Shown in pieces: positions 22,298 through 33,166 of a DNA stretch of 36,448 bases (position 1 is the first letter of the stretch; the number at the start of each line of letters is the position of its first letter). Origin of the DNA: an uncultured Selenomonadaceae bacterium (GTDB lineage: Bacteria > Bacillota > Negativicutes > Selenomonadales > Selenomonadaceae); contig CAJOPJ010000230.1 of the NCBI GenBank assembly GCA_905236325.1, forward strand, positions 1 to 36,448, in the 5' to 3' direction. Both the position numbers and the translations under genes were made by a program. Below the pieces are notes generated by a model. That model was not told where the DNA came from, ran no database searches, and saw nothing but the letters and a program-made list of their open reading frames with translations.

Positions 22298-23179
22298 TTG
22301 AAAAAAATATTTTTGTTAACAATTTTGATATTAAGTTTTGTAATTTCAGGTTGCGGAAATTCAGACGACGACAAATTGCATATTGTAACTTCATTTTATC
22401 CAATGTACATTGACGCAATAAATATTGTTGGCGAAGTTGAAGGCGTTGAAGTTACAAATTTAACGCCGCCGCAAACAGGTTGTCTACACGACTATCAACT
22501 TACAACTGACGATATGAAAAAACTTGAACGCGCAGATATTTTTATTGTCAACGGCTTGGGCATGGAAAGTTTTTTGGACAAAGTTGTTGAAGAACACAGC
22601 GATTTAAAATTTATTGACGCGTCGCAATCTGAAGATATTTTTGTTTTGAAGGACGGCGAAGAAATAAATCCGCACATTTGGATGAGCGTTACTTATGCAA
22701 TGCAACAGGTGCGTGTCATTTCAAGTCAGCTTTGTGAATTGGACCCTGAACATGCTGAAATTTATAAACAAAATACGCTGGAATATTTAAATAAACTTTC
22801 TGTCCTGCGCGACGAAATGCATTTGGCTTTAGACAACCTGCCTAACAAAGACATTGTAACTTTCCATGAAGCATTTCCATACTTTGCGGCGCAATTTAAA
22901 TTAAATATTGCAGGCGTAATTGAACGCGAACCTGGAACTGAACCGACACCGCAAGAATTGGCTGAAACAATTCAGCTTGTAAATAATCTGCCGGTGAAAG
23001 TTTTGTTCACTGAACCGCAATATTCCCCAAAAGCAGCCGAAACTATTGCAAGAGAAACCGGCGCAAAAATTTTCACACTCGACCCTGTAACTACAGGCGA
23101 AGCTATTCCGGAAAACAAAAATGCCTATCTTGATGCCATGCGCAAAAATATGCAAACTCTGGTTGAGGCACTGCAATGA
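22298..23179 (+). CDS. Cluster A-I (ZnuA/TroA/AdcA-like) metal-binding lipoprotein
   Basis: The lipobox is LSFVISGCGN. The likely metal ligands are in GCLHDYQLT, NPHIWMS and FHEAFPYF, and the C-terminus has LFTEPQYS. The start is TTG, after GGAGG. Confidence 0.82.
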   Translation: MKKIFLLTILILSFVISGCGNSDDDKLHIVTSFYPMYIDAINIVGEVEGVEVTNLTPPQTGCLHDYQLTTDDMKKLERADIFIVNGLGMESFLDKVVEEHSDLKFIDASQSEDIFVLKDGEEINPHIWMSVTYAMQQVRVISSQLCELDPEHAEIYKQNTLEYLNKLSVLRDEMHLALDNLPNKDIVTFHEAFPYFAAQFKLNIAGVIEREPGTEPTPQELAETIQLVNNLPVKVLFTEPQYSPKAAETIARETGAKIFTLDPVTTGEAIPENKNAYLDAMRKNMQTLVEALQ

Positions 23180-24189
23180 AATATTTTATGCTGATTACAA
23201 TTCTGCTTGTACTTTTGATTGGCGTAGGAATTGGCGCGTATCGTTCACTGCAAGATTTGCAAAATTTGCCGATTAAATCAATGAAAAATATTCAAGACAC
23301 AATCGACCAACGCGACGCAGAAAATTTTTACAGACTTGTCGATATTGATAAAGTACTGGACGACGCGGCGAAAGAAATTTTATCTGCAAAAATAAATGCT
23401 GAATTTGGCGCAACTGCCTATTCAATGCAGGAATTGGCTAATATTTTTGAACAGCGCAAGCCGGAGTTTACTTCAATTACAAAAAAAGCTGTCGATGATT
23501 ATATTTCAACCGGCAAAGTAAATCTTTCAAATACTTCAAGCCCAACTTTGAAGTGGCTTAAAGATTCAGAAATAAATTCTTGCGTCATAAAACAAATTTC
23601 AAAACCTGTTATCAAAGAAAATTCAGCGACTTGCAAAATTGAATTTTACAATCAAAGTTTGCTGTTTAGTTTTGAACTTGAATTTGCGCTGGAAAAAATT
23701 GACAAAAATCAGTGGCGAATCATTGGAGCAACAGGTTTTGAAAATTATCTTGCAGGATTGAATCGTGCGCTGAAAAAAAAGTTGGAACGCCTTAACGCGC
23801 CTGTTCGCAATGAAATTAAAGATATTTTTATAATCAAAGGCTTTAGTGCAAAAGTTGTTGAAGGCGATGAATATGGCTTTTCAAAGACACTGAAAATTGA
23901 TTTAAAAGCTGATGTTAAACCTGAAAAGCCGTTGTCAAAAATTGTCGGAAGAATTATCATTGTAGGACGCAACGGCGACGAAGGTATCACGCCTTTTGAA
24001 ATTGATATGGCTTATAAGCCGACAGGACTGCAAACCTTCACAATCAACAAAACTTTAAATCCATTTGTGCAACAAGACGCTGACGCAATGAAGCATGGTT
24101 TGCGCAGGAACGACTTGCATATTGAAATAACAGAAATTATTTACATGGACGGCACAAATTTAAAGCAATTTGAAGAAATTCCTGAATGA
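23176..24189 (+). CDS. Hypothetical N-terminally membrane-anchored protein (337 aa)
   Basis: The ATG overlaps the ZnuA-like stop (ATGA). There is one TM helix (FMLITILLVLLIGVGIGAY). The first soluble half loosely recalls NTF2-like DUF2939/DUF4878 proteins (AENFYRLVDIDKVLDDAAKEIL). I do not recognise the second half. Confidence 0.6.
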   Translation: MKYFMLITILLVLLIGVGIGAYRSLQDLQNLPIKSMKNIQDTIDQRDAENFYRLVDIDKVLDDAAKEILSAKINAEFGATAYSMQELANIFEQRKPEFTSITKKAVDDYISTGKVNLSNTSSPTLKWLKDSEINSCVIKQISKPVIKENSATCKIEFYNQSLLFSFELEFALEKIDKNQWRIIGATGFENYLAGLNRALKKKLERLNAPVRNEIKDIFIIKGFSAKVVEGDEYGFSKTLKIDLKADVKPEKPLSKIVGRIIIVGRNGDEGITPFEIDMAYKPTGLQTFTINKTLNPFVQQDADAMKHGLRRNDLHIEITEIIYMDGTNLKQFEEIPE

Positions 24190-24266
24190 TATAAAAAAAT
24201 TTTGTAACAATGTAAAAATATATGTTAAAATACCACCGCAAATTTTTTTTAGGTGGGATTTTTTTT

Positions 24267-24788
24267 ATGAACAGTTTAACCGGACTAAACGCTTTGATTG
24301 TGAATAATATTTTTTACATAATAATTGGCGTTGGATTTATTTTGTTGGTGCTGTTTTTTTTGCTGATAACTGCAAAGATGGATATTTCTGACCTCCGGCA
24401 ACGTTACAAAAAAATGATGGGCGAATCGGACGGCTTGGAGCTTGAAAGAATGCTTAATGAACACGCCGACATAATGAAAAGAATTTCCGGCGATATGCGC
24501 AGAGTTGACGGCGAAATTTCAAATATCAACGCGCTTTTGGAAAAGGCAATTACGCGCGTTGCAATTATCAGATACAACGCCTTTGATGATACAAGTTCGG
24601 ATCTTAGTTTTTCACTTGCTCTGCTCGACGACAACAACACCGGCGTAATAATTTCTTCGCTGTATGGTCGTGATACTTCACAAACTTACGCAAAACCAAT
24701 AATCAATGGCAATTCGCCGCAATACAAATTGACTGATGAAGAAATTCAAGTCCTCAAGGAAGCGTCAATTTCACCTGTTAGGAAGTGA
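24267..24788 (+). CDS. DUF4446-like membrane / coiled-coil protein
   Basis: It has a TM helix (IFYIIIGVGFILLVLFFLLI), a coiled coil and a conserved C-terminus IIRYNAFDDTSSDLSFSLALLDDNNTGVIISSLYGRDTSQTYAKPI that fits my memory of DUF4446. ATG 24267 lies 9 nt after AGGTGGG. Confidence 0.7.
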   Translation: MNSLTGLNALIVNNIFYIIIGVGFILLVLFFLLITAKMDISDLRQRYKKMMGESDGLELERMLNEHADIMKRISGDMRRVDGEISNINALLEKAITRVAIIRYNAFDDTSSDLSFSLALLDDNNTGVIISSLYGRDTSQTYAKPIINGNSPQYKLTDEEIQVLKEASISPVRK

Positions 24789-24793
24789 TTTTT

Positions 24794-25675
24794 ATGCAAA
24801 AAAAAATTACATTGGCTGAAAATAATTTGCGCGTGAAGTTGGAGCGCAATTCAGAAATTGAAATTGACACAGCGGCTTTTTTGTCGGACGCTGAAGATAA
24901 AACTACCGAAGCTGATTTAGTTTTTTATGGCAATGAAAATCACAATTCCGGCGGCGTAATTCACAATGCTGATGACTCAATCTCAATCGACCTGTCAAAA
25001 ATTCCTGCGCAAATTGTTAAAATTACTTTCACTGCAACAATTTATGAACCGCAGGAAACTAAGCATAACTTCAGTCAAGTTGGCGCAATGAATTTAAAAA
25101 TTTACAACATTGCAGGTACAGAAATTTTTGCCTTTCCAATAAGCACAGAAAAAAATGTCACGACAATTATTTTAGGCGACTTTTGCCGGCAAAAAAATTG
25201 TTGGACTTTCGAGGCTAACGGTGCATTTTATCCTATAGAACTTAAAGACATTTGCAAAATTTTCGGCTTGAATGTTGAAGGCGAAGTTGAGGAAAATAAC
25301 ATAAAACCTGAGGAAGTTGAAAAATTCAGCAAAGATTATTCTGAAAAAAGTTTTTTTGATAAATCTGTCGGCGTTGTCAAAAAAGCAGGTCTGGAACTTA
25401 TTTATAAAGCTTTGCAACTTTACTATGTCACCCAAAAGCCAAATTGTCCAACGCGCGTTAAGGCTGCAATTTATGGTACGCTTGGAATGTTTATTGCGCC
25501 ACTGGATTTTATTCCTGACTTTATGCCGATTATGGGGTTCACTGACGACGCCGGCGCAATCGCAGTTGCTTTGACTATTGCGCATTTTTACATTGACGAC
25601 GAAGTTAAAAAAAATGCCAAAGACAGACTACAAAGTTTGTTCGGCAAAGAAATTTTGTCTGAATTGAAAGTTTAG
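24794..25675 (+). CDS. Degenerate TerD-like domain fused to a DUF1232 (YkvA-like) membrane domain
   Basis: Residues ~1-165 align by eye with the TerD at 26858 (DLVFYGN.NH.SGGV.H...ISIDLSKIP..I.KITFTATIY...NFSQV....LKIYN....W.F.A.G). The C-terminus AAIYGTLGMFIAPLDFIPDFMPIMGFTDDAGAIAVAL is the DUF1232 signature. Confidence 0.7.
   Translation: MQKKITLAENNLRVKLERNSEIEIDTAAFLSDAEDKTTEADLVFYGNENHNSGGVIHNADDSISIDLSKIPAQIVKITFTATIYEPQETKHNFSQVGAMNLKIYNIAGTEIFAFPISTEKNVTTIILGDFCRQKNCWTFEANGAFYPIELKDICKIFGLNVEGEVEENNIKPEEVEKFSKDYSEKSFFDKSVGVVKKAGLELIYKALQLYYVTQKPNCPTRVKAAIYGTLGMFIAPLDFIPDFMPIMGFTDDAGAIAVALTIAHFYIDDEVKKNAKDRLQSLFGKEILSELKV
24941..25006 (+). repeat. Copy 1 of a 66-nt near-identical block shared by the adjacent TerD paralogs
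   Basis: Positions 24941-25006 match 25850-25915 at 64 of 66 nt. Both mismatches (24961 and 24973) are synonymous third-position changes. The flanking coding sequence is much more diverged. Confidence 0.9.
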
Positions 25676-25687
25676 GTGGTGATTTTT

Positions 25688-26836
25688 ATGGAACTTCGCA
25701 AGGGACAAAAAGTTCAGCTGAATGAAAATTTGCTGACAGTTCGGTTTGAAAGAAATTCCGGCGCAGTTGAAATTGACACGGCGGCTTTCTTGCAAACTGC
25801 AAGCCCAACAGTTGCTGAGGAAGATTTTATTTTTTATGGCAATGCCATCCACAATTCCGGCGGCGTAATCCACAATGCTGACGACTCAATCTCAATCGAC
25901 CTGTCAAAAATTCCTAAACACATTGAAAAAATTTCTTTCACTGCGACAATTTATGACGCGGCAGTCCGCAAACAAAATTTCAGCAAAATCAGCGGCGCGT
26001 CGCTAAAAATTATCAACCGGCAAGGCGTTAATCTTTACAATTTTGCGCTGGAAAGTTTCACTTCGGAAACTGCGATTGTACTTGGCGAAATTTATCGCTA
26101 CAAAGACAGTTGGAAGTTCAACGCAGTCGGCGCAGGTTTTTATGGCGGCTTAGCTGCACTTTGCAAAAATTTTGGCATTGAAGTTACCGAAGAAATGTCG
26201 GCTCCATCGCAACCAACTCCGCCACCAAAAATTATAATTCCGCCGCCAACTAAAATTGAACTTCAAAAAGGACAAAAAATCAATATCAAAAAAAAGTCCG
26301 CCAATCTTGGCGAAATTTTAATCAATTTAAATTGGGCACAGCCAACTAAATCAGGCGTTCTTGGCAGATTTAAAAATTCTATCGACTTGGATTTAGCTTG
26401 CCTTTATGAACTTAAAGACGGCGAAATCGGCGCAATTCAAGCACTTGGAAATTATTTTGGCGATTTAAATTATCCACCCTACATTGCGCTTGACGGCGAC
26501 GACAGAACAGGTTCTGTTGCAGGCGGCGAAAATTTGCGCATAAATGGCAAATACATAGATAAAATCAGTCGCATTTTGATTTTTACTTTTATTTATTCCG
26601 GCGCGGCAAATTGGCAACAAGCTAAAGGCGTTGTCACAGTAAAATGTCCCGGCAATCCTGACTTGATTGTGCGTATGGATGAGTACGGCTTTGACTTGCC
26701 AACTTGCGCAATTGCTTTGCTTGAAAATATCGGCGAAACATTTTGTGTTGAAAAAATTGTCAATTTCTATTATGATTCTAAACAGATGGACGAAGACTTC
26801 GACTGGGGTCTTACTTGGACTCGCGGAAGTAAATAA
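25688..26836 (+). CDS. TerA-like protein with two TerD-family domains joined by a Pro-rich linker
   Basis: The N-domain is of the degenerate type (FIFYGNAIHNSGGVIHNADDSISIDL...YKDSWKFNAVGAGFYGGLAALCKNFG). The linker is PSQPTPPPKIIIPPPTK. The C-domain is of the TerA type (LQKGQKINI, DLDLACLYELKDG, LDGDDRTGSVAGGENL, CAIALLEN). Confidence 0.75.
   Translation: MELRKGQKVQLNENLLTVRFERNSGAVEIDTAAFLQTASPTVAEEDFIFYGNAIHNSGGVIHNADDSISIDLSKIPKHIEKISFTATIYDAAVRKQNFSKISGASLKIINRQGVNLYNFALESFTSETAIVLGEIYRYKDSWKFNAVGAGFYGGLAALCKNFGIEVTEEMSAPSQPTPPPKIIIPPPTKIELQKGQKINIKKKSANLGEILINLNWAQPTKSGVLGRFKNSIDLDLACLYELKDGEIGAIQALGNYFGDLNYPPYIALDGDDRTGSVAGGENLRINGKYIDKISRILIFTFIYSGAANWQQAKGVVTVKCPGNPDLIVRMDEYGFDLPTCAIALLENIGETFCVEKIVNFYYDSKQMDEDFDWGLTWTRGSK
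25850..25915 (+). repeat. Copy 2 of the 66-nt near-identical block
   Basis: See copy 1. It encodes the identical peptide HNSGGVIHNADDSISIDLSKIP. Confidence 0.9.
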
Positions 26837-26857
26837 ATTGTTAGGAGGAATTTTAAA

Positions 26858-27436
26858 ATGGCAATCAGTTTGAAAAAAGGTCAGAAAGTTGATTTAACAA
26901 AAGGCAATCCAAGTTTGACAAAAATTTTAGTCGGACTTGGTTGGGATACCAATAAGTACGACGGCGGCTTTGACTTCGACTTGGACGCTGCGGCTTTTTG
27001 CTTGAACTCAACAGGCAAAGTCAACAAGGACGAAGATTTTGTTTTTTATAACAACCTCAAGCACGAAAGCGGCGCAGTCGAACACATGGGCGACAACTTA
27101 ACCGGCGAAGGCGAAGGTGACGATGAAGAAATCAAAATCGACTTGCCTAAAGTTCCTGCCAACATTGAAAAAATCGACTTCACTGTCACAATTTATGACG
27201 CAGAAGCACGCAAGCAAACTTTCGGTCAAGTTTCTAACGCTTACATTCGCGTTGTGGACGATTCAACAGGCAAAGAACTTATCCGCTACGATCTTGGCGA
27301 AGATTTTTCAGTCGAAACTGCAGTTGTTGTCGGCGAACTTTATCGGCATAACGGCGAATGGAAATTTAACGCTATTGGTTCAGGTTTCAGCGGCGGCTTA
27401 GCTGCTCTCGGCAGAAATTTTGGAGTTAATGTCTAA
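26858..27436 (+). CDS. terD: Canonical TerD-family stress protein
   Basis: It reads [63 protein letters not shown] and [21 protein letters not shown], which is close to the textbook TerD/TerE/YceD pattern. The SD is AGGAGG. Confidence 0.92.
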
Positions 27437-27774
27437 TGCATGAAGCATCTTTGGCTGAAAGTATAATAAAAATTGCACTCGACACGGCTGAAAAAAATTC
27501 TGCAAAAAAAATAACAGCTGTCGGCTTAAAGTTAGGTGAAATGGCTGGCGTTGAAGTCGAGGCGTTGAATTTAAGTTTTAATGTTTTAAAACAAAAAACA
27601 CCGGCGCAGGACGCGGAATTAAAAATAAATCGCGTCCCAATCCGCGCCACTTGCAACAAGTGCGGTAAAACTTTTGAAGTTCCGCACTATAATTTTTTTT
27701 GCCCTGAATGTGACGGAATTTTAATTTTGCAAAGTGGACGCGAACTTCTGGTTGAATTTGTTGACTGCGAATGA
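27436..27774 (+). CDS. hypA: HypA-type Ni/Zn metallochaperone (hydrogenase maturation factor A family)
   Basis: It has the MHE N-terminal nickel motif ([11 protein letters not shown]) and the zinc ribbon CNKCG...CPECDG, and its length of 112 aa fits. The start shares one nt with the terD stop (TAATG). Confidence 0.85.
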   Translation: MHEASLAESIIKIALDTAEKNSAKKITAVGLKLGEMAGVEVEALNLSFNVLKQKTPAQDAELKINRVPIRATCNKCGKTFEVPHYNFFCPECDGILILQSGRELLVEFVDCE

Positions 27775-27833
27775 TTTATTTTTGACAAGTTCACGCGAAG
27801 TTAAATTTCAAAAATCTTGAGGAGTGAAAATTT

Positions 27834-28685
27834 TTGACAAAATTACAGGCGCACGCAAATAATATCGCCTTGCCGCACGCAATTTTTTCAATGCCATTTG
27901 CGTTTATGGGCGCGTTAATGGCAACTGAAGGCGCGGTTGATTGGTGGATTTTATTTTTAATTACAGTTACAGTGACTGCTGCGCGTTCGGCAGCGTTGGC
28001 GTTGAACAATTTAGCAGACTTGAAATATGACAAACTGCAGCCGCGAATGAGCTATCGTGCAATGGTTCGCGGCGAAATTTCACGCACTGAAGCAATAATT
28101 TTTATCGCGCTGTGTTTTGTAATTTTAATTGTGACAGTCGCGCAGTTACCGCCAATCTGCATTAAACTTTTGCCGATAGCAGCGTTGCCGTTCATAATCT
28201 ACCCATTCACCAAAAGATTTACCGGCTGGTGTCATTTAGTTTTAGGCTTAGCACTTGCAATGGCACCTGCCGGCGCATGGTTAGCCTCCGGCGGCGAACT
28301 TTTTAAGCCGGCACAAATTTTTTTGTCATTGGCTATAATGTTTTGGATTGCAGGTTTTGACGCAATGTATGGCGCACAAGATGAAAAATTTGATAAATCG
28401 CAGAAGTTACATTCTTTAGCTACAGAATTTGGCGCACGCGGCGCATTTAAAATTGCGACTGCTTGGCATGTGATTAGCATAATTTGTTTGCTTATTTGCG
28501 GCGTGATTTTAAATTTGTCGACGATTTATTATATCGGCGTCGGCGTTGCGGCAGGTACTTTGATTTATCAGCACGCGATTGTCAGCTACAATGATTTCAG
28601 CCAAGTTACGCAAACTTACTTCCTGCGCAACGGCATTGTTTCAATCGCGCTTTTGGTTTTTACTTGGCTTAACTACCTTGTATAA
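27834..28685 (+). CDS. UbiA-superfamily aromatic prenyltransferase (4-hydroxybenzoate polyprenyltransferase-like / MqnP-like)
   Basis: The protein is multi-TM and has Asp-rich motifs NNLADLKYD and GFDAMYGAQDEKFD. The start is TTG, after GGAGTG. Confidence 0.75.
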   Translation: MTKLQAHANNIALPHAIFSMPFAFMGALMATEGAVDWWILFLITVTVTAARSAALALNNLADLKYDKLQPRMSYRAMVRGEISRTEAIIFIALCFVILIVTVAQLPPICIKLLPIAALPFIIYPFTKRFTGWCHLVLGLALAMAPAGAWLASGGELFKPAQIFLSLAIMFWIAGFDAMYGAQDEKFDKSQKLHSLATEFGARGAFKIATAWHVISIICLLICGVILNLSTIYYIGVGVAAGTLIYQHAIVSYNDFSQVTQTYFLRNGIVSIALLVFTWLNYLV

Positions 28686-28751
28686 AAAAATTTTTTATGC
28701 TATTATTTTTGCATTGTAATTATAAAAATTATTTTTAGGAGGCTTTATAAA

Positions 28752-30020
28752 ATGGCTGACAAACCTAAAATTGTAATTGTCGGCGGCGGCTTTGGCGGAA
28801 TTAAAATTGCTAAACTTTTCGCCAAAGAAAATGTCGAAGTTACTTTGATTGACAGACATAATTTTCATTTATTCCAGCCGCTTTTGTATCAAGTTTCAAC
28901 TTCAGTGCTTTCGACTGATGAAATTGCTTATCCGATTCGCAGTTTTTTCCGCAAGGCTAAAAATTTCAAGTTGTTTATGGCTAAAGCACGCGGCGTTGAC
29001 CAAGAACGCAATGTTGTTATCACCAATCACGGCGAAATTTCTTACGACTACTTGATTTTGGCGGCGGGCGCAACTACTAACTTTTTCGGTATGAAGGAAG
29101 TTGAAGAGCACGCGTTCGGTATGAAAACAATTCAGGAAGCCTTGCACATTCGCAACCATGTTCTGCATGAATTTGAACGCGCAAGCAAACCTTACCGCAC
29201 GCCGGAAGACCGCAAAAAGCGCATGACTTTTGTAGTTGTCGGCGGCGGACCAACCGGCGTTGAAGAAGCAGGTGCGCTTACCGAATTGATTGAAATTCAG
29301 AAAAAAGAAATTCACGAACTTGATTTTAATGATGTCAGCGTAAAATTGATTGAGGCAACGTCGCGAATTTTGCCGATGATGTCTGAAGATTTACAGCAAA
29401 AAGCAATTCAGGTTTTAAAAGATAAAGGCGTTGAAGTTATGCTCGACACACAGGTTGTCGGCTACGACGGCGATGTTTTGAAACTAAAAAATGGCGTTGA
29501 AATTCCAACCACAACAGTTATCTGGGCAGCCGGCGTTCGCGCTGTTGATATGATGGCAAATTGTGGTGCAGAAACTGCACGTGACGGCAGAGTTTGGGTT
29601 GAAGAAGATTTGCGCTTAAAAAATTCTGTTCATGGCAATGTTTTTGCAATCGGAGACTGCGCGGCTTTTATGCACGGCGATATGCAAAGACCGCTGGCGA
29701 CTGTTGCGCCTGTTGCAACTCAACAAGCAGTTGTCGCGCACAAAAATATTATGAAGTTAATCAAAGGCGATACCAACCTTGAAAAATTTGTCTACAAAGA
29801 CTTAGGCGCAATGGCAACTATTGGACGCGGTCAAGCAGTTGTCAACAGTCCGCACATGACAGGTTTTCTGGCTTGGAGTGCGTGGATGCTTGTTCACTTG
29901 ATTAGACTTGCAGGCGCGCACGCAAACTTCACTGTTGCTATTAAGTGGGCGTGGAACTTCCTTTCCGGTACTCGACTTGGCAGAATTATTACTAACATTG
30001 ATTTGGAAGATAAATATTGA
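28752..30020 (+). CDS. ndh: Type II NADH:quinone oxidoreductase (NDH-2)
   Basis: It has two Rossmann motifs (IVIVGGGFGG and VVVGGGPTGVE), an AIGDCA motif and a C-terminal membrane-anchoring helix region. Confidence 0.88.
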   Translation: MADKPKIVIVGGGFGGIKIAKLFAKENVEVTLIDRHNFHLFQPLLYQVSTSVLSTDEIAYPIRSFFRKAKNFKLFMAKARGVDQERNVVITNHGEISYDYLILAAGATTNFFGMKEVEEHAFGMKTIQEALHIRNHVLHEFERASKPYRTPEDRKKRMTFVVVGGGPTGVEEAGALTELIEIQKKEIHELDFNDVSVKLIEATSRILPMMSEDLQQKAIQVLKDKGVEVMLDTQVVGYDGDVLKLKNGVEIPTTTVIWAAGVRAVDMMANCGAETARDGRVWVEEDLRLKNSVHGNVFAIGDCAAFMHGDMQRPLATVAPVATQQAVVAHKNIMKLIKGDTNLEKFVYKDLGAMATIGRGQAVVNSPHMTGFLAWSAWMLVHLIRLAGAHANFTVAIKWAWNFLSGTRLGRIITNIDLEDKY

Positions 30021-30577
30021 GCAGAAAAAATTTTTTAATATTTGGCACGGCGGGATTATTTTTAATTTGCGCTGTGATTTTTTTGACTTCACTTTACCAA
30101 ACAACACGCGCAGAAATTTTACGCATGCAAACCGAAACGCAACGCTTGGAACTTGAAACAGCAGAATTAAAAAAATATTTTGCAAAAGCCGGCAACGCTG
30201 AAAAATTTTTTGAACTCAATGAAGAAAATTTTATTTCAGTGCGTGAATTTTTGCCGGCGACTTTTGAACAGGAAAAGTTCACTGACTCAATTTATCGCGC
30301 AGCAAACAAAAATAATATTTCAATCAGCGCATTGCAGATTGAAGAACCTTTGCAGTTGGAAGTCAGCGAAAATTTTGCAGGAAATTTTTTCAAACAATCA
30401 ATCAGAGTTCAATTTGCGGCTGAATATGTTCAGCTGTTGAATTTTTTGCGTGAAGTTTTGGACGGCAAAAGATTTGCAACACTTGGAAAAATTTCTATCA
30501 GCGCGGAAGATGAAATTTTAAATTGTGACGCAGAATTTTTTATTTACACAGCAAAGTTGGTGACAAATATTGAATAA
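30017..30577 (+). CDS. PilO / T2SS-M-like bitopic membrane protein (orphan)
   Basis: It has an N-terminal TM helix (FLIFGTAGLFLICAVIFL), a coiled coil and a C-terminal domain patterned like PilO (FLPA....F.D.I...A....I.I..L.I ... IRVQFAAEYVQLLNFLREV...R). The TTG start overlaps the ndh stop (TTGA). Confidence 0.5.
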   Translation: MSRKNFLIFGTAGLFLICAVIFLTSLYQTTRAEILRMQTETQRLELETAELKKYFAKAGNAEKFFELNEENFISVREFLPATFEQEKFTDSIYRAANKNNISISALQIEEPLQLEVSENFAGNFFKQSIRVQFAAEYVQLLNFLREVLDGKRFATLGKISISAEDEILNCDAEFFIYTAKLVTNIE

Positions 30578-31820
30578 TACAGCTGTTATTCATGGAAATT
30601 TTTTATACACGCCTGACAAAGACAATTTTGTTACATTAAAAAATGGCTATATGTATTTGCGCAATGGTCGGATTGAATATCTTGGTAACAAATGTCCAAT
30701 TGAAAATATTCCAGTGCTGAATTATCAAGACAAATTGATTTTGCCGGGATTTTATGATATGCATCTGCATGCGCCGCAATTTAATCAAATTGGTCATGGA
30801 ATGGACGAACAATTGCTTGACTGGCTGAATAAATATACATTTGCCGAAGAAAGTAAATTTGTTTCTGCCTCTTACGCTGAAGAAGTTTACAAAATTTTTG
30901 CAGATGAACTGGTGCGTAATGGAACTGTCGGGACGGCAATTTTTTCCACAATACATTTTGAAAGCACCAACAAATTAGCTGAAAAAATTTTAGCAAAAGG
31001 ACTTCGCGCTTATGTCGGCAAAGTCAACATGGATACAAATTCGGCGACGACATTGACTGAAGATACAAAAATTTCATTGCAGGAAACTGAAAAATTTATA
31101 CAAAAATGGCGGCAAAATAAATTTGTAAAACCAATCATAACGCCGCGATTTGTACCAAGTTGTACACCTGAACTTCTGCAAGGACTTGGCAATTTGGCTG
31201 TCAAGTACAATTTGCCTGTTCAAAGTCATTTGTCTGAAAATATTTCTGAAGTCAACTTGGTAAAGAAACTTTTTCCGCAAGAAAAATATTACCTGGAAGT
31301 TTATGATAAATTTAATCTGTTTGGTGAAACGCCAACTTTAATGGCGCATTGTATACACCTTAGCGACGCAGAAATTTCAAAAATTGCAAAGCGCAATGTT
31401 TATGCTGTTCATTGTCCTGACTCCAATCTCAACTTGAGTAGTGGAATTATGCCTGTCAGGAAAATGCTTAATGCCGGTGTTAAAATTGCGCTGGGAAGTG
31501 ATATTGGCGCAGGTCACAGCTTATTTATTCCGCACGCAATTGTCAGAGCTGTTCAACTTTCAAAACTTGCAAACTTAGCAGACAATTCCTGCACACCACT
31601 GAAACTTTCTGAAATTTTTTATATGGCAACTAAATCCGGCGGAAGTTTTTTTGGAAAATCCGGCAGTTTTGAAATTAATTTTACAGCTGATTTTATTGTG
31701 GTCAATGTGCCTGAAAGTCAAAAAAATAAAAGCCTTGAAGAACAACTGCAAAATTTTATTTATCATGGCAAACCACAGGATATTATAAAAATTTATGTGG
31801 CAGGAAAACCTGTCAACTGA
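30570..31820 (+). CDS. Guanine deaminase-like amidohydrolase
   Basis: LPGFYDMHLHAPQ (HxH), LLDWLNKYTFAEE, YVGKVNMD, ITPRFVPSCT, VQSHLSEN, MAHCIHL, HCPDSN and GSDIGAG are collinear with clostridial-type guanine deaminases. The TTG start overlaps the previous gene by 8 nt. Confidence 0.78.
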   Translation: MNNTAVIHGNFLYTPDKDNFVTLKNGYMYLRNGRIEYLGNKCPIENIPVLNYQDKLILPGFYDMHLHAPQFNQIGHGMDEQLLDWLNKYTFAEESKFVSASYAEEVYKIFADELVRNGTVGTAIFSTIHFESTNKLAEKILAKGLRAYVGKVNMDTNSATTLTEDTKISLQETEKFIQKWRQNKFVKPIITPRFVPSCTPELLQGLGNLAVKYNLPVQSHLSENISEVNLVKKLFPQEKYYLEVYDKFNLFGETPTLMAHCIHLSDAEISKIAKRNVYAVHCPDSNLNLSSGIMPVRKMLNAGVKIALGSDIGAGHSLFIPHAIVRAVQLSKLANLADNSCTPLKLSEIFYMATKSGGSFFGKSGSFEINFTADFIVVNVPESQKNKSLEEQLQNFIYHGKPQDIIKIYVAGKPVN

Positions 31821-31848
31821 TAAATTATTTTTTTGGGAGGAATTTAAA

Positions 31849-32403
31849 TTGGCAAATTTAACTTTAGCACAGGCAAAAGAAATTTTAGCTAAACACACAA
31901 CTGAAGAGCATTTGTTTACGCACGCAGCTGCAGTCAGCGCAGCTATGGAGGCTATGGCTGAATATTTCGGCGAAGACAAAGAACATTGGGCGGCGATTGG
32001 TTACTTGCACGATGTTGATTTTGAAAAATTTCCTGAAGAACATTGCGCTCATGTACGCGAACTTTTGAAACCTGAAGGCGTTTCTGCTGAAGATATTGAT
32101 ACAATTATTTCGCACGGCTATGGCTTGACTGCTTCTGATGTTAAACCAACCACAAATTGCCAAAAATCTTTATTTGCTGTTGATGAACTTACAGGTATCG
32201 TTCACGCCTATTCCTTAATGCGCCCTGAAAAATTCGCAGGTATGAGCGTTAAAAGCCTTAAAAAAAAATTTAAAGACAAAAGATTTGCCGCAAAATGCAA
32301 CCGAGATGTTATCACAAAAGGCGCACAAGATTTAGGAATCGACTTGGGCGAACTTATGGAACTTTGCATTAAGGGCATGGCGGCGCACGCTGAAAATTTT
32401 TAA
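31849..32403 (+). CDS. HD-domain metal-dependent phosphohydrolase
   Basis: It has the H...HD signature (THAAAVSAAMEAM...IGYLHDVD) and ISHGYG. TTG 31849 lies 8 nt after GGGAGG. Confidence 0.75.
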   Translation: MANLTLAQAKEILAKHTTEEHLFTHAAAVSAAMEAMAEYFGEDKEHWAAIGYLHDVDFEKFPEEHCAHVRELLKPEGVSAEDIDTIISHGYGLTASDVKPTTNCQKSLFAVDELTGIVHAYSLMRPEKFAGMSVKSLKKKFKDKRFAAKCNRDVITKGAQDLGIDLGELMELCIKGMAAHAENF

Positions 32404-32491
32404 TGTAAACTTAATCTTTCATAAATAAATCACATTTAAGGTTTATAATTTGCCACAGATTTTAAAAAATTTGAGGGATGTGTTGTTATTT

Positions 32492-33166
32492 ATGAAGTTT
32501 TTTCGCACTGTTTCTATTGCAACTATGTTAATGTTAAGTTCGTCGATTAGTTTTGCGTCAGGTGAAATTGTAATGGGAGATCAAGGCGCAGAAATTGCAG
32601 AAGTACAACAACAGCTTGTTCAACGCGGCTATGATGTTATGGCGGACGGCGATTTCGGTCCTGCAACTGTTGACGCAATTAGGTCTTTTCAAGAAACTCA
32701 AGGAATTGAAGCCGACGGAATGATTGATTCCACAACTTTTAAGCTTTTAATTGGTCGCGATATGCCTGAAATTACTCACGGCGCAAATTATATCGGTCGC
32801 AGAATAGTAAACACTGCACATCAATATCTTGGTGTGCCTTATGTTTTTGGTGGAAATAGTCCGCGTACAGGTTTGGATTGTTCGGCTTATGTAAAGCTGG
32901 TTTATTCACAGGTCGGAATTGAACTTCCACGCACTGCTGATGCACAATACACGCGTGGAACTCCGGTTTCAGTTACTGACTTAATTCCAGGCGACGCTGT
33001 ATTTTTCCAAACTTATGCACCCGGCGCATCGCATGTAGGAATTTATATTGGCGACGGCAACTTCATTCACGCAAGTTCAAGTCGTGGCGTGACTGTTTCT
33101 TCGCTCAGCGCAGCTTACTACAGTTCACATTATCTCGGCGCACGCAGAATGATTAATCAACATTAA
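32492..33166 (+). CDS. Secreted NlpC/P60 (C40) peptidase with a PG_binding_1 domain
   Basis: It has a signal peptide, then a peptidoglycan-binding repeat (GDQGAEIAEVQQQLVQRGYDV.ADGDFGPATVDAIRSFQ). The catalytic residues lie in GLDCSAYV and HVGIYIG...IHAS. The start could also be TTG 32483. Confidence 0.88.
   Translation: MKFFRTVSIATMLMLSSSISFASGEIVMGDQGAEIAEVQQQLVQRGYDVMADGDFGPATVDAIRSFQETQGIEADGMIDSTTFKLLIGRDMPEITHGANYIGRRIVNTAHQYLGVPYVFGGNSPRTGLDCSAYVKLVYSQVGIELPRTADAQYTRGTPVSVTDLIPGDAVFFQTYAPGASHVGIYIGDGNFIHASSSRGVTVSSLSAAYYSSHYLGARRMINQH

Follow-up and report, generated by a model that had tools for sequence, protein, structure and literature searches.

The window analyzed here, that is, the whole stretch of 36,448 nucleotides that makes up contig CAJOPJ010000230.1 of an uncultured Selenomonadaceae bacterium (assembly GCA_905236325.1), carries a compact array of five genes related to the Ter stress systems: a gene for a DUF4446 protein (gene 1), a gene for a fusion of a TerD-like domain with a DUF1232 domain (gene 2), a terA-like gene (gene 3), a canonical terD gene (gene 4) and hypA (gene 5). 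The six-frame list of open reading frames (ORFs) places all five on the forward strand (Table 1), with spacers of 5 nt between genes 1 and 2, 12 nt between genes 2 and 3 and 21 nt between genes 3 and 4, and with genes 4 and 5 sharing 1 nt (TAATG); a Shine-Dalgarno-like motif precedes each of the five starts. Thus, the tight same-strand packing that had been proposed from the sequence alone agrees with the ORF list, and a Pfam search recovered all the domain assignments of that original prediction (TerD, DUF1232, DUF4446 and HypA). Judging from the comparison with related loci described below, the array is built of three layers of different age: the core pair of genes 3 and 4, the DUF4446 and HypA flanks, and the fusion.

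Table 1. Features of the Ter-family array and its immediate surroundings (window coordinates).
Feature	Position	Strand	Details
Promoter-like TTGTAA-18-TAAAAT with extended -10 TG	24202..24231	+	9/12 match; 77-nt spacer before the DUF4446 gene
DUF4446 protein, 173 aa (gene 1)	24267..24788	+	Pfam PF14584, 2.3e-46, profile positions 1-149 of 150
Upstream duplication copy	24778..25072	+	Ribosome-binding site (RBS) box 24778-24799; conversion tract 24914-25047/25072
TerD::DUF1232 chimera, 293 aa (gene 2)	24794..25675	+	TerD nt 24842-25264, flexible linker, helical DUF1232 (Pfam core nt 25457-25564)
Downstream (parental) duplication copy, 5' end of the terA-like gene	25672..25981	+	Direct-repeat search
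TerA homologue, 382 aa (gene 3)	25688..26836	+	Pfam TerD, 5.3e-52, two stretches
Canonical TerD, 192 aa (gene 4)	26858..27436	+	Pfam PF02342, 2.5e-87, profile positions 1-187 of 187
HypA, 112 aa (gene 5)	27436..27774	+	Pfam PF01155, 1.1e-30; TIGR00100, 90.5 bits vs cut-off 88.1

The protein encoded by gene 3 is a true TerA homologue rather than merely a TerA-like protein. A tblastn comparison with the annotated terA genes on plasmids of Klebsiella and Enterobacter gives 35% identity at 93-100% coverage (E about 1e-53; 6e-54 for Klebsiella plasmids), and the protein possesses all the features by which TerA was recognized, namely, two domains, a length of about 385 aa, full-length homology, a GDDRTG loop and a W-G-x-x-W-x-R-G-S-K tail. 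In the alignment, the N-terminal TerD-like domain lacks the 10-residue Ca loop, and a Pro-rich linker leads to the C-terminal domain that contains the GDDRTG loop and ends with WGLTWTRGSK, matching the WGxxWxRGSK tail of TerA. Gene 4 encodes a typical TerD protein with highly significant matches to the TerD structures in the PDB (3IBZ, 2.2e-73, and 2KXT, 3.6e-72). Two Ca2+ sites have been described in TerD, formed in the Klebsiella protein by residues 40-42, 78, 79 and 89 and by residues 29, 82, 84 and 88, respectively (PMC8779313); in the alignment, both Ca-site motifs are intact in the gene 4 product (DFDLD and a second motif of 13 residues), so that Ca2+ binding is predicted.

The DUF4446 protein contains an N-terminal transmembrane (TM) helix (hydropathy peak 3.1, aa 4-43), and its AlphaFold2 (AF2) model, with a predicted local distance difference test (pLDDT) score of 86, consists of the TM helix, long helices, a small four-stranded sheet and a C-terminal helix; a Foldseek search of the PDB with this fold returned nothing below E 0.2, and a PDB profile search produced coiled-coil noise only. 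HypA retains the N-terminal MHE motif (MHEASL...) and the CxxC...CxxC zinc site (CNKC...CPEC). Neither the window nor any of the HypA loci examined contains hypB-F or hydrogenase genes, so that HypA is an orphan throughout. A full-text literature search, in which the main comparative survey of Ter systems was not covered, found no paper on a link between TerD and HypA or on TerD domains paired with DUF1232, and DUF4446 was not mentioned in any paper retrieved by full-text search.

To place the array in a comparative context, we mapped all the proteins of the window by tblastn onto 189 related loci (designated by L numbers), comprising 80 TerD-anchored loci from GTDB genomes, 80 metagenome loci retrieved with the TerA-like alignment, and contigs found through homologues of HypA, DUF4446 or the TerA-like protein. 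The scan of metagenomes with the TerA-like alignment missed L103, and all the loci that it retrieved lacked DUF4446 and HypA; a metagenome scan with the TerA-like protein alone yielded no confirmed relative. Among these loci, 44 full-length terA-like genes were identified, and terD follows terA in 35 of the 38 cases that could be evaluated. The gene order is not confined to this genome: the complete succession of DUF4446, TerA-like, TerD and HypA, including the 1-nt overlap, recurs in L103 and L104, where the identity to the window proteins is 56% for DUF4446, 62% for TerA, 91% for TerD and 84-85% for HypA. The locus with the closest TerA relative (L188, 72% identity) has the terA-like gene, terD and hypA located behind a TylF methyltransferase gene. 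Parts of the order are found elsewhere, with DUF4446 followed by the terA-like gene in L093/L094 and L105, and terD followed by hypA in L090/L091. The DUF4446 homologues located directly upstream of the terA-like genes in L093/L094, L103, L104 and L105 are 56-64% identical to the window protein, with an identical DUF4446 protein in L103-L105; the 1-nt overlap between the terD stop and the hypA start is also present in L090/L091, L103, L104 and L188. The sequences indicate that L103, L104 and L105 form one group, which L090/L091 probably join given that their HypA and that of L103 belong to a single 90% cluster.

Outside the four genes, the surroundings differ. Upstream, there is an opposite-strand HisKA gene, FabD, TylF, or ZnuA together with a gene of unknown identity; downstream, EF-G, RNase_T followed by UbiA, or UbiA. 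In the neighbor-joining tree of the TerA-like proteins, rooted at the midpoint, the genes linked to DUF4446 or HypA are the deepest, and a large derived clade contains the pair only, a topology that would fit an ancestral four-gene cassette that was later reduced to the pair.

The fusion protein encoded by gene 2 appears to be the youngest layer. Both of its domains are readily detectable, TerD at 2e-28 (aa 17-157) and DUF1232 (PF06803) at 3.4e-10 (aa 222-257), the latter scoring 39.9 bits against a gathering score of 23. The AF2 model comprises a beta-sandwich (aa 1-156, pLDDT about 90), a low-confidence linker (aa 164-169) and helices (aa 172-289), with an additional low-confidence loop (aa 235-250) within the helical part. 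Over its N-terminal half, the fusion shares 51% identity with the N-terminal domain of the TerA-like protein encoded next to it, and in the alignment, this half lacks the Ca-binding loop as that domain does. The C-terminal half shares 59% identity with DUF1232 proteins of 181 aa that stand alone and are encoded in unrelated neighborhoods (GIY-YIG, radical SAM); more generally, DUF1232 is a C-terminal module that is attached to varied N termini. No second protein combining TerD and DUF1232 was found among 5.8 billion proteins, and a HMMER pass over 1.84 billion representatives produced no match to both halves, with the matches spanning either residues 3-165 or residues 160-291. A 230-aa protein (P0273) that matches residues 85-291 of the fusion was considered as a second case and rejected, because its N-terminal 110 residues are not TerD-like, as judged by eye only.

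The origin of the fusion is recorded in a direct repeat with a spacing of 909 nt that includes the RBS (repeat families D1, D2, D5 and D9). The RBS box upstream of the terA-like gene (25672-25693) is 86% identical to that of the fusion, and the 134-nt tract 25823-25956 is 88% identical to 24914-25047; in a sliding comparison of the two copies, the identity is 87-92% in the middle and only 37-65% in the flanks. Such a tract of high identity embedded in sequence of much lower identity is a signature of gene conversion. The fusion thus arose when the 5' end of the terA-like gene, comprising the RBS and the whole N-terminal TerD-like domain, was duplicated in tandem and joined to a DUF1232 module, and its TerD part has since been partially homogenized by gene conversion.

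Among the loci and proteins compared, the fusion is restricted to the window and to L095, a 1.5-kb scaffold from another assembly that encodes DUF4446 (88% aa identity) followed by the same fusion, and it is accordingly best described as what its distribution indicates, a lineage-specific chimera. The junction between TerD, linker and DUF1232 is base-for-base identical in the window and in a contiguous stretch of L095. The DUF1232 parts of the two are diverged alleles with pN of 0.22 and pS of 0.89; with pN well below pS, this part is under purifying selection. Aligned along its length, L095 (104-1495) is a mosaic relative to the window (24193-25590), with approximately 91% nucleotide identity in the DUF4446 gene, 100% in the 5' portion of the fusion as well as across the junction, and approximately 70% in the DUF1232 core, a pattern suggestive of recombination, whether between strains or between paralogs, or of a chimeric co-assembly.

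The absence of the classical partners of Ter proteins, on which the original prediction insisted, holds for the entire contig: there is no Pfam match to TerC (PF03741), TerB or TelA in any ORF of at least 110 aa in the 36-kb window, and tblastn searches of the window detected no homologues of the Klebsiella TerB, TerC, StiP, PRTase, ATP-grasp, HpcH or HAD proteins, of the Aneurinibacillus TerC or of a Selenomonadales P-type ATPase. A classical locus split by the edge of the window was considered and dismissed, given that the 24 kb upstream and the 8.7 kb downstream of the array contain no TerC, TerB or TelA. As a distinguishing mark, however, the lack of TerC and TerB does not survive the comparison, because the TerD loci of related Firmicutes from gut and rumen mostly lack both in cis: among the 189 loci, TerC was found in 7 and TerB in 4, compared to 35 for StiP, 41 for PRTase, 48 for the HpcH-lyase, 33 for HAD and 79 for a P-type cation ATPase. 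What sets the window apart is that it contains none of these partners but has DUF4446, DUF1232 and HypA instead.

The comparison also brought out a recurrent partner set of the TerD pairs themselves. In rumen and gut Firmicutes, these pairs are very often located beside a P-type (Ca-type) cation ATPase (79/189; for example, L046 2374-10579 and L049 6937-15374, the latter with an HMA Cu-type ATPase directly upstream), and in Selenomonadaceae, they also adjoin GT2 glycosyltransferases and a PNP/UDP phosphorylase; this ATPase/GT2/PNP set is a much more frequent companion than either TerC or TerB. In six loci (L012, L124, L015, L121, L127 and L116), a Swt1-like HEPN ORF (PF18731, 8e-22) is inserted between the terA-like gene and terD, and in L012 (9422-10579), the HEPN domain and the canonical TerD are encoded in a single uninterrupted ORF of 385 aa, perhaps a HEPN::TerD fusion.

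Among the known systems, the closest in organization is terZABCDE(F) of IncHI2 and Klebsiella plasmids (e.g., L189, pRGF20-1-tmexCD), in which a two-domain TerA is likewise encoded beside a Ca-site TerD in a compact, same-strand arrangement; the TerD proteins are about 60% identical and the TerA proteins 35% identical to those of the window. However, the window lacks TerZ, TerB, TerC, TerE and TerF as well as the adjacent module of PRTase, ATP-grasp, StiP, HpcH and HAD genes, whereas terZABCDE(F) resides on a plasmid or island and has no DUF4446, DUF1232 or HypA, in contrast to the chromosomal, housekeeping setting of the window locus. The yceCDEFGH-type clusters of Firmicutes and gut Clostridia share with the array several TerD paralogs in a row on one strand, and two-domain TerA-like proteins are common there, but these clusters usually carry StiP, PRTase, HpcH-lyase, HAD and, very often, a P-type cation ATPase, none of which is present in the window; the Aneurinibacillus cluster (L076), for instance, consists of StiP-PELOTA, HAD, three TerD paralogs and TerC. 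With neither TelA (YceH) nor TerC (YceF) beside its TerD, the locus also falls outside the yceC-H type as that type is defined. The pair found in other rumen Selenomonadaceae (L010-L026, L046 and L108-L134) is orthologous and in the same order, with 60-75% identity for TerA and 81-89% for TerD, but is located behind GT2, often downstream of a TerD-TerD-GT2-(PNP)-Ca-ATPase array and sometimes with the HEPN insert, and is not accompanied by DUF4446, DUF1232 or HypA. The stand-alone tdd genes of Streptomyces resemble the window locus in representing the TerD family without TerC or TerB in cis, but belong to a different phylum and are mostly single, without DUF4446 or HypA partners. A mention of the tdd genes in PMC8779313 ties them to Ca2+ binding, growth and differentiation, not to tellurite. 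Finally, compared to the HypA proteins encoded in hypABCDEF operons, HypA of the window shares the MHE nickel motif and the CxxC...CxxC zinc site but differs in its orphan state. Collectively, the DUF4446-TerA-TerD-HypA array is a real, partly conserved variant of the Ter stress system, which is known but poorly understood; it does not represent a new type of system, although the variant itself seems to be undescribed.

The five genes are probably co-transcribed. The promoter proposed upstream of gene 1 is present as a TTGTAA-18-TAAAAT match, but it is one among 36 promoter-like matches in 8.9 kb, compared to 18.4 +/- 4.4 expected from shuffled sequences, and because similar matches occur at about twice the shuffle expectation, it is weak evidence of a promoter. 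In L103 and L104, the DUF4446 homologue follows a divergent gene, so that the promoter there must lie upstream of DUF4446. No convincing terminator was found within the array, as claimed originally, and none was found after hypA either (fold z = +1.0 there); because the array lies inside an 11-kb run of same-strand genes (22298-33166) that extends from ZnuA upstream to NlpC/P60 downstream, the point at which transcription of the unit ends is not defined. An Rfam search found no riboswitch, the sole match being a tRNA-Arg.

Two other promoter-like sites in the region deserve mention. A TTGAAA-17-TATGAT match (10/12) is present both in the window (26748-26776) and in L103 (6623-6651), where it falls within the 3'-terminal part of the terA-like gene and precedes terD by 82-103 nt; it is either a possible internal promoter for terD-hypA or merely a conserved coding sequence. 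The best sigma-70-like match of the region, TTGACA-18-AATAAT (11/12; 27834-27863), coincides with the beginning of the UbiA/MqnP-like ORF; as the TTG start of this ORF is backed by the L092 alignment, the match is probably spurious, unless the real UbiA start lies further downstream.

The remainder of the contig is a housekeeping chromosomal stretch that encodes FtsY, RimM, DnaX, YbaB, a cluster of a PASTA kinase, PP2C and FHA proteins, shikimate pathway enzymes and Skp/OmpH, and the closest relatives of both TerD and HypA come from metagenome-assembled genomes of rumen Selenomonadaceae. Immediately upstream of the array, positions 23176-24189 encode a 337-aa protein with a hydrophobic N-terminal segment, the ORF of which overlaps the ZnuA stop by 4 nt; this protein produced no match in Pfam, NCBIfam or PADLOC and has no homologue in the 189 loci. 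In L012 (5531-12961), NlpC/P60 and GT2 genes lie upstream of the TerA-like/TerD pair, and an aminotransferase and ZnuA (66% identical) downstream, while in the window (22298-33166), it is ZnuA that lies upstream and NlpC/P60 downstream; hence, the Ter pairs of the window and of L012 may reside in a broadly homologous, rearranged chromosomal neighborhood.

Elsewhere, hypA homologues occur in contexts that are worth recording on their own. In L096 (982-5336; also L097 and L098), a solitary HypA with 80% identity is encoded at a distance of 2-4 kb from PRTase_2/TRSP and C-C_Bond_Lyase genes of the Ter type, from which it is separated by an opposite-strand PGM gene, a second, looser co-location of HypA and Ter genes. 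In L092 (414-3163), on a Selenomonadaceae-like contig of 383 kb, genes for ZorA-like, OmpA-like and DUF8245 proteins are located a few kb upstream of ComF-HypA-UbiA, in what looks like a Zorya-type defense locus.

By analogy with other Ter systems, TerA and TerD would constitute a cytoplasmic, Ca2+-responsive stress pair. In the absence of TerC and TerB, this pair would be brought to the inner face of the membrane by way of DUF4446, which would take the place of the TerC/TerB interface; in this lineage only, the fusion, which combines a loop-less TerD domain with DUF1232, would serve as a membrane-proximal docking subunit; and HypA, co-translated with TerD, would represent either a nickel/zinc tie or simply a passenger encoded last in the operon. 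The role in envelope stress, metal stress or phage response that was proposed originally is a conjecture. Taken as a whole, this reading of the locus, a chromosomal, reduced Ter-family cassette of rumen Selenomonadaceae built in three layers around a membrane-acting TerA/TerD pair, appears to us about evenly poised between right and wrong. Tellurite resistance conferred by the module itself is unlikely, by analogy with the better studied systems. It has been reported that terC and terD are the minimal tellurite-resistance genes, that terA relieves the growth burden or toxicity of terCD, and that E. coli carrying terAD but not terC did not become tellurite resistant (PMC8779313); with terAD alone inactive and terC plus terD the minimal set, tellurite resistance is not the phenotype to be expected here. 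We are rather doubtful of a bolder version of the membrane reading, in which DUF4446 would be a new membrane partner that replaces TerC/TerB, HypA would provide a nickel/zinc tie, the four genes would form a distinct minimal Ter-type system of membrane or metal stress ancestral to the TerA family of Selenomonadaceae, and the fusion would be a new, second membrane adaptor.

Much of the evidence that weighs against a membrane-acting cassette favors a simpler account, in which only TerA and TerD are functional at this locus, DUF4446 and HypA are neighbors by descent, with HypA helping to mature a [NiFe]-hydrogenase elsewhere in the cell and DUF4446 retaining the role, whatever it may be, that it plays beside parAB in other Firmicutes, and the fusion is a young, possibly neutral by-product of duplication. 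DUF4446 and HypA are not regular partners: among the 44 full-length terA-like genes, DUF4446 precedes the gene in 4 of 38 evaluable cases and HypA follows terD in 4 of 32, so that most relatives keep the pair with neither flank nearby, and the linkage is confined to about four independent lineages (the window, L103/L104, L093/L094 and L188), all uncultured and mostly represented by short contigs. Both flanking genes are at home in other contexts. A DUF4446 gene with 54% identity at the protein level is found in the order parA-parB-DUF4446; HypA homologues with 77-80% identity occur as ComF-HypA-(178 aa)-UbiA, 4-6 nt behind ComF, and also alone between PGM and an aminotransferase gene. Because HypA-UbiA exists without Ter genes, and UbiA is retained downstream of HypA in the window and in L104, the Ter genes may have landed upstream of a pre-existing HypA-UbiA pair, and because HypA is packed tightly behind whatever gene precedes it, its link to TerD could be inherited synteny. 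Furthermore, the tree that places the four-gene cassette at the base has an insecure root, the promoter evidence is weak, and no terminator marks the 3' side of HypA. With regard to the fusion, the membrane-tethered TerD that had been put forward as a component of the system is lineage-specific, and its insertion into the membrane is not evident: the hydropathy of the DUF1232 part is marginal, with maxima of 1.39 over 19 aa (aa 222-240) and 1.85 over 15 aa (aa 253-267), and no 19-aa window of the fusion reaches the Kyte-Doolittle threshold of 1.6; in addition, the omega value of about 0.47 between the TerD domain of the fusion and the N-terminal domain of TerA permits relaxed constraint on the duplicated domain. 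Nevertheless, linkage by descent alone does not readily account for a four-gene order that is kept at 56-62% identity of DUF4446 and TerA while both outer flanks have been replaced, for the exact 1-nt overlap of TerD and HypA in every case, for the occurrence of TerD-HypA with EF-G, not UbiA, downstream, or for purifying selection on the DUF1232 part of the fusion as seen in two diverged alleles. We therefore regard this account as a substantial possibility, albeit one with less than an even chance.

Two other explanations carry less weight. Given that published work connects Ter systems with the inhibition of phages and classes them among conflict systems (PMC7824862; PMC8779313), the array might be an anti-phage module in which TerA and TerD sense a signal of infection while DUF4446 and DUF1232 execute a response at the membrane, and the Swt1-like HEPN inserts in six related loci, in frame with TerD in one of them, could be taken in the same sense. 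However, PADLOC 2.0 produced no match for the five proteins or for the 337-aa protein encoded upstream, the contig is of the housekeeping type without any signature of mobile elements, integrases or defense islands, the window lacks PRTase, HAD, StiP or other genes for signal synthesis, and the locus contains no nuclease or other effector domain, which makes a defense function in this form quite improbable. It is scarcely credible that the fusion is a product of metagenome mis-assembly or a decaying pseudogene, so that the locus would really consist of four genes. The presence of the fusion protein on a single contig in the protein database would be compatible with an artifact, as would the N gap in the L095 scaffold and its mosaic identity to the window, but an assembly chimera was rejected in view of the intact ORF with its own RBS, the base-identical junction in a contiguous stretch of L095, the selection on DUF1232 and the mere 51% identity of the TerD domain to its neighbor, which identifies a separate paralog, not a collapsed repeat; AF2 also folds both domains.

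The mechanism of the Ter systems is unresolved, and a classical Ter locus is sizeable, comprising at least seven genes in addition to a biosynthetic module. The value of the present locus is limited by its restriction to about four uncultured rumen lineages and by the possibility that the neighbors are linked by descent only. The fusion nonetheless presents a clean, datable case of gene birth through partial tandem duplication and domain capture followed by gene conversion, and, should DUF4446 prove to be coupled to Ter, this would be the first functional lead for that family. A naturally reduced cassette of this kind, which besides TerA and TerD comprises just a small single-pass membrane protein and a metallochaperone, might simplify the question of what the TerD-family proteins do at the membrane.

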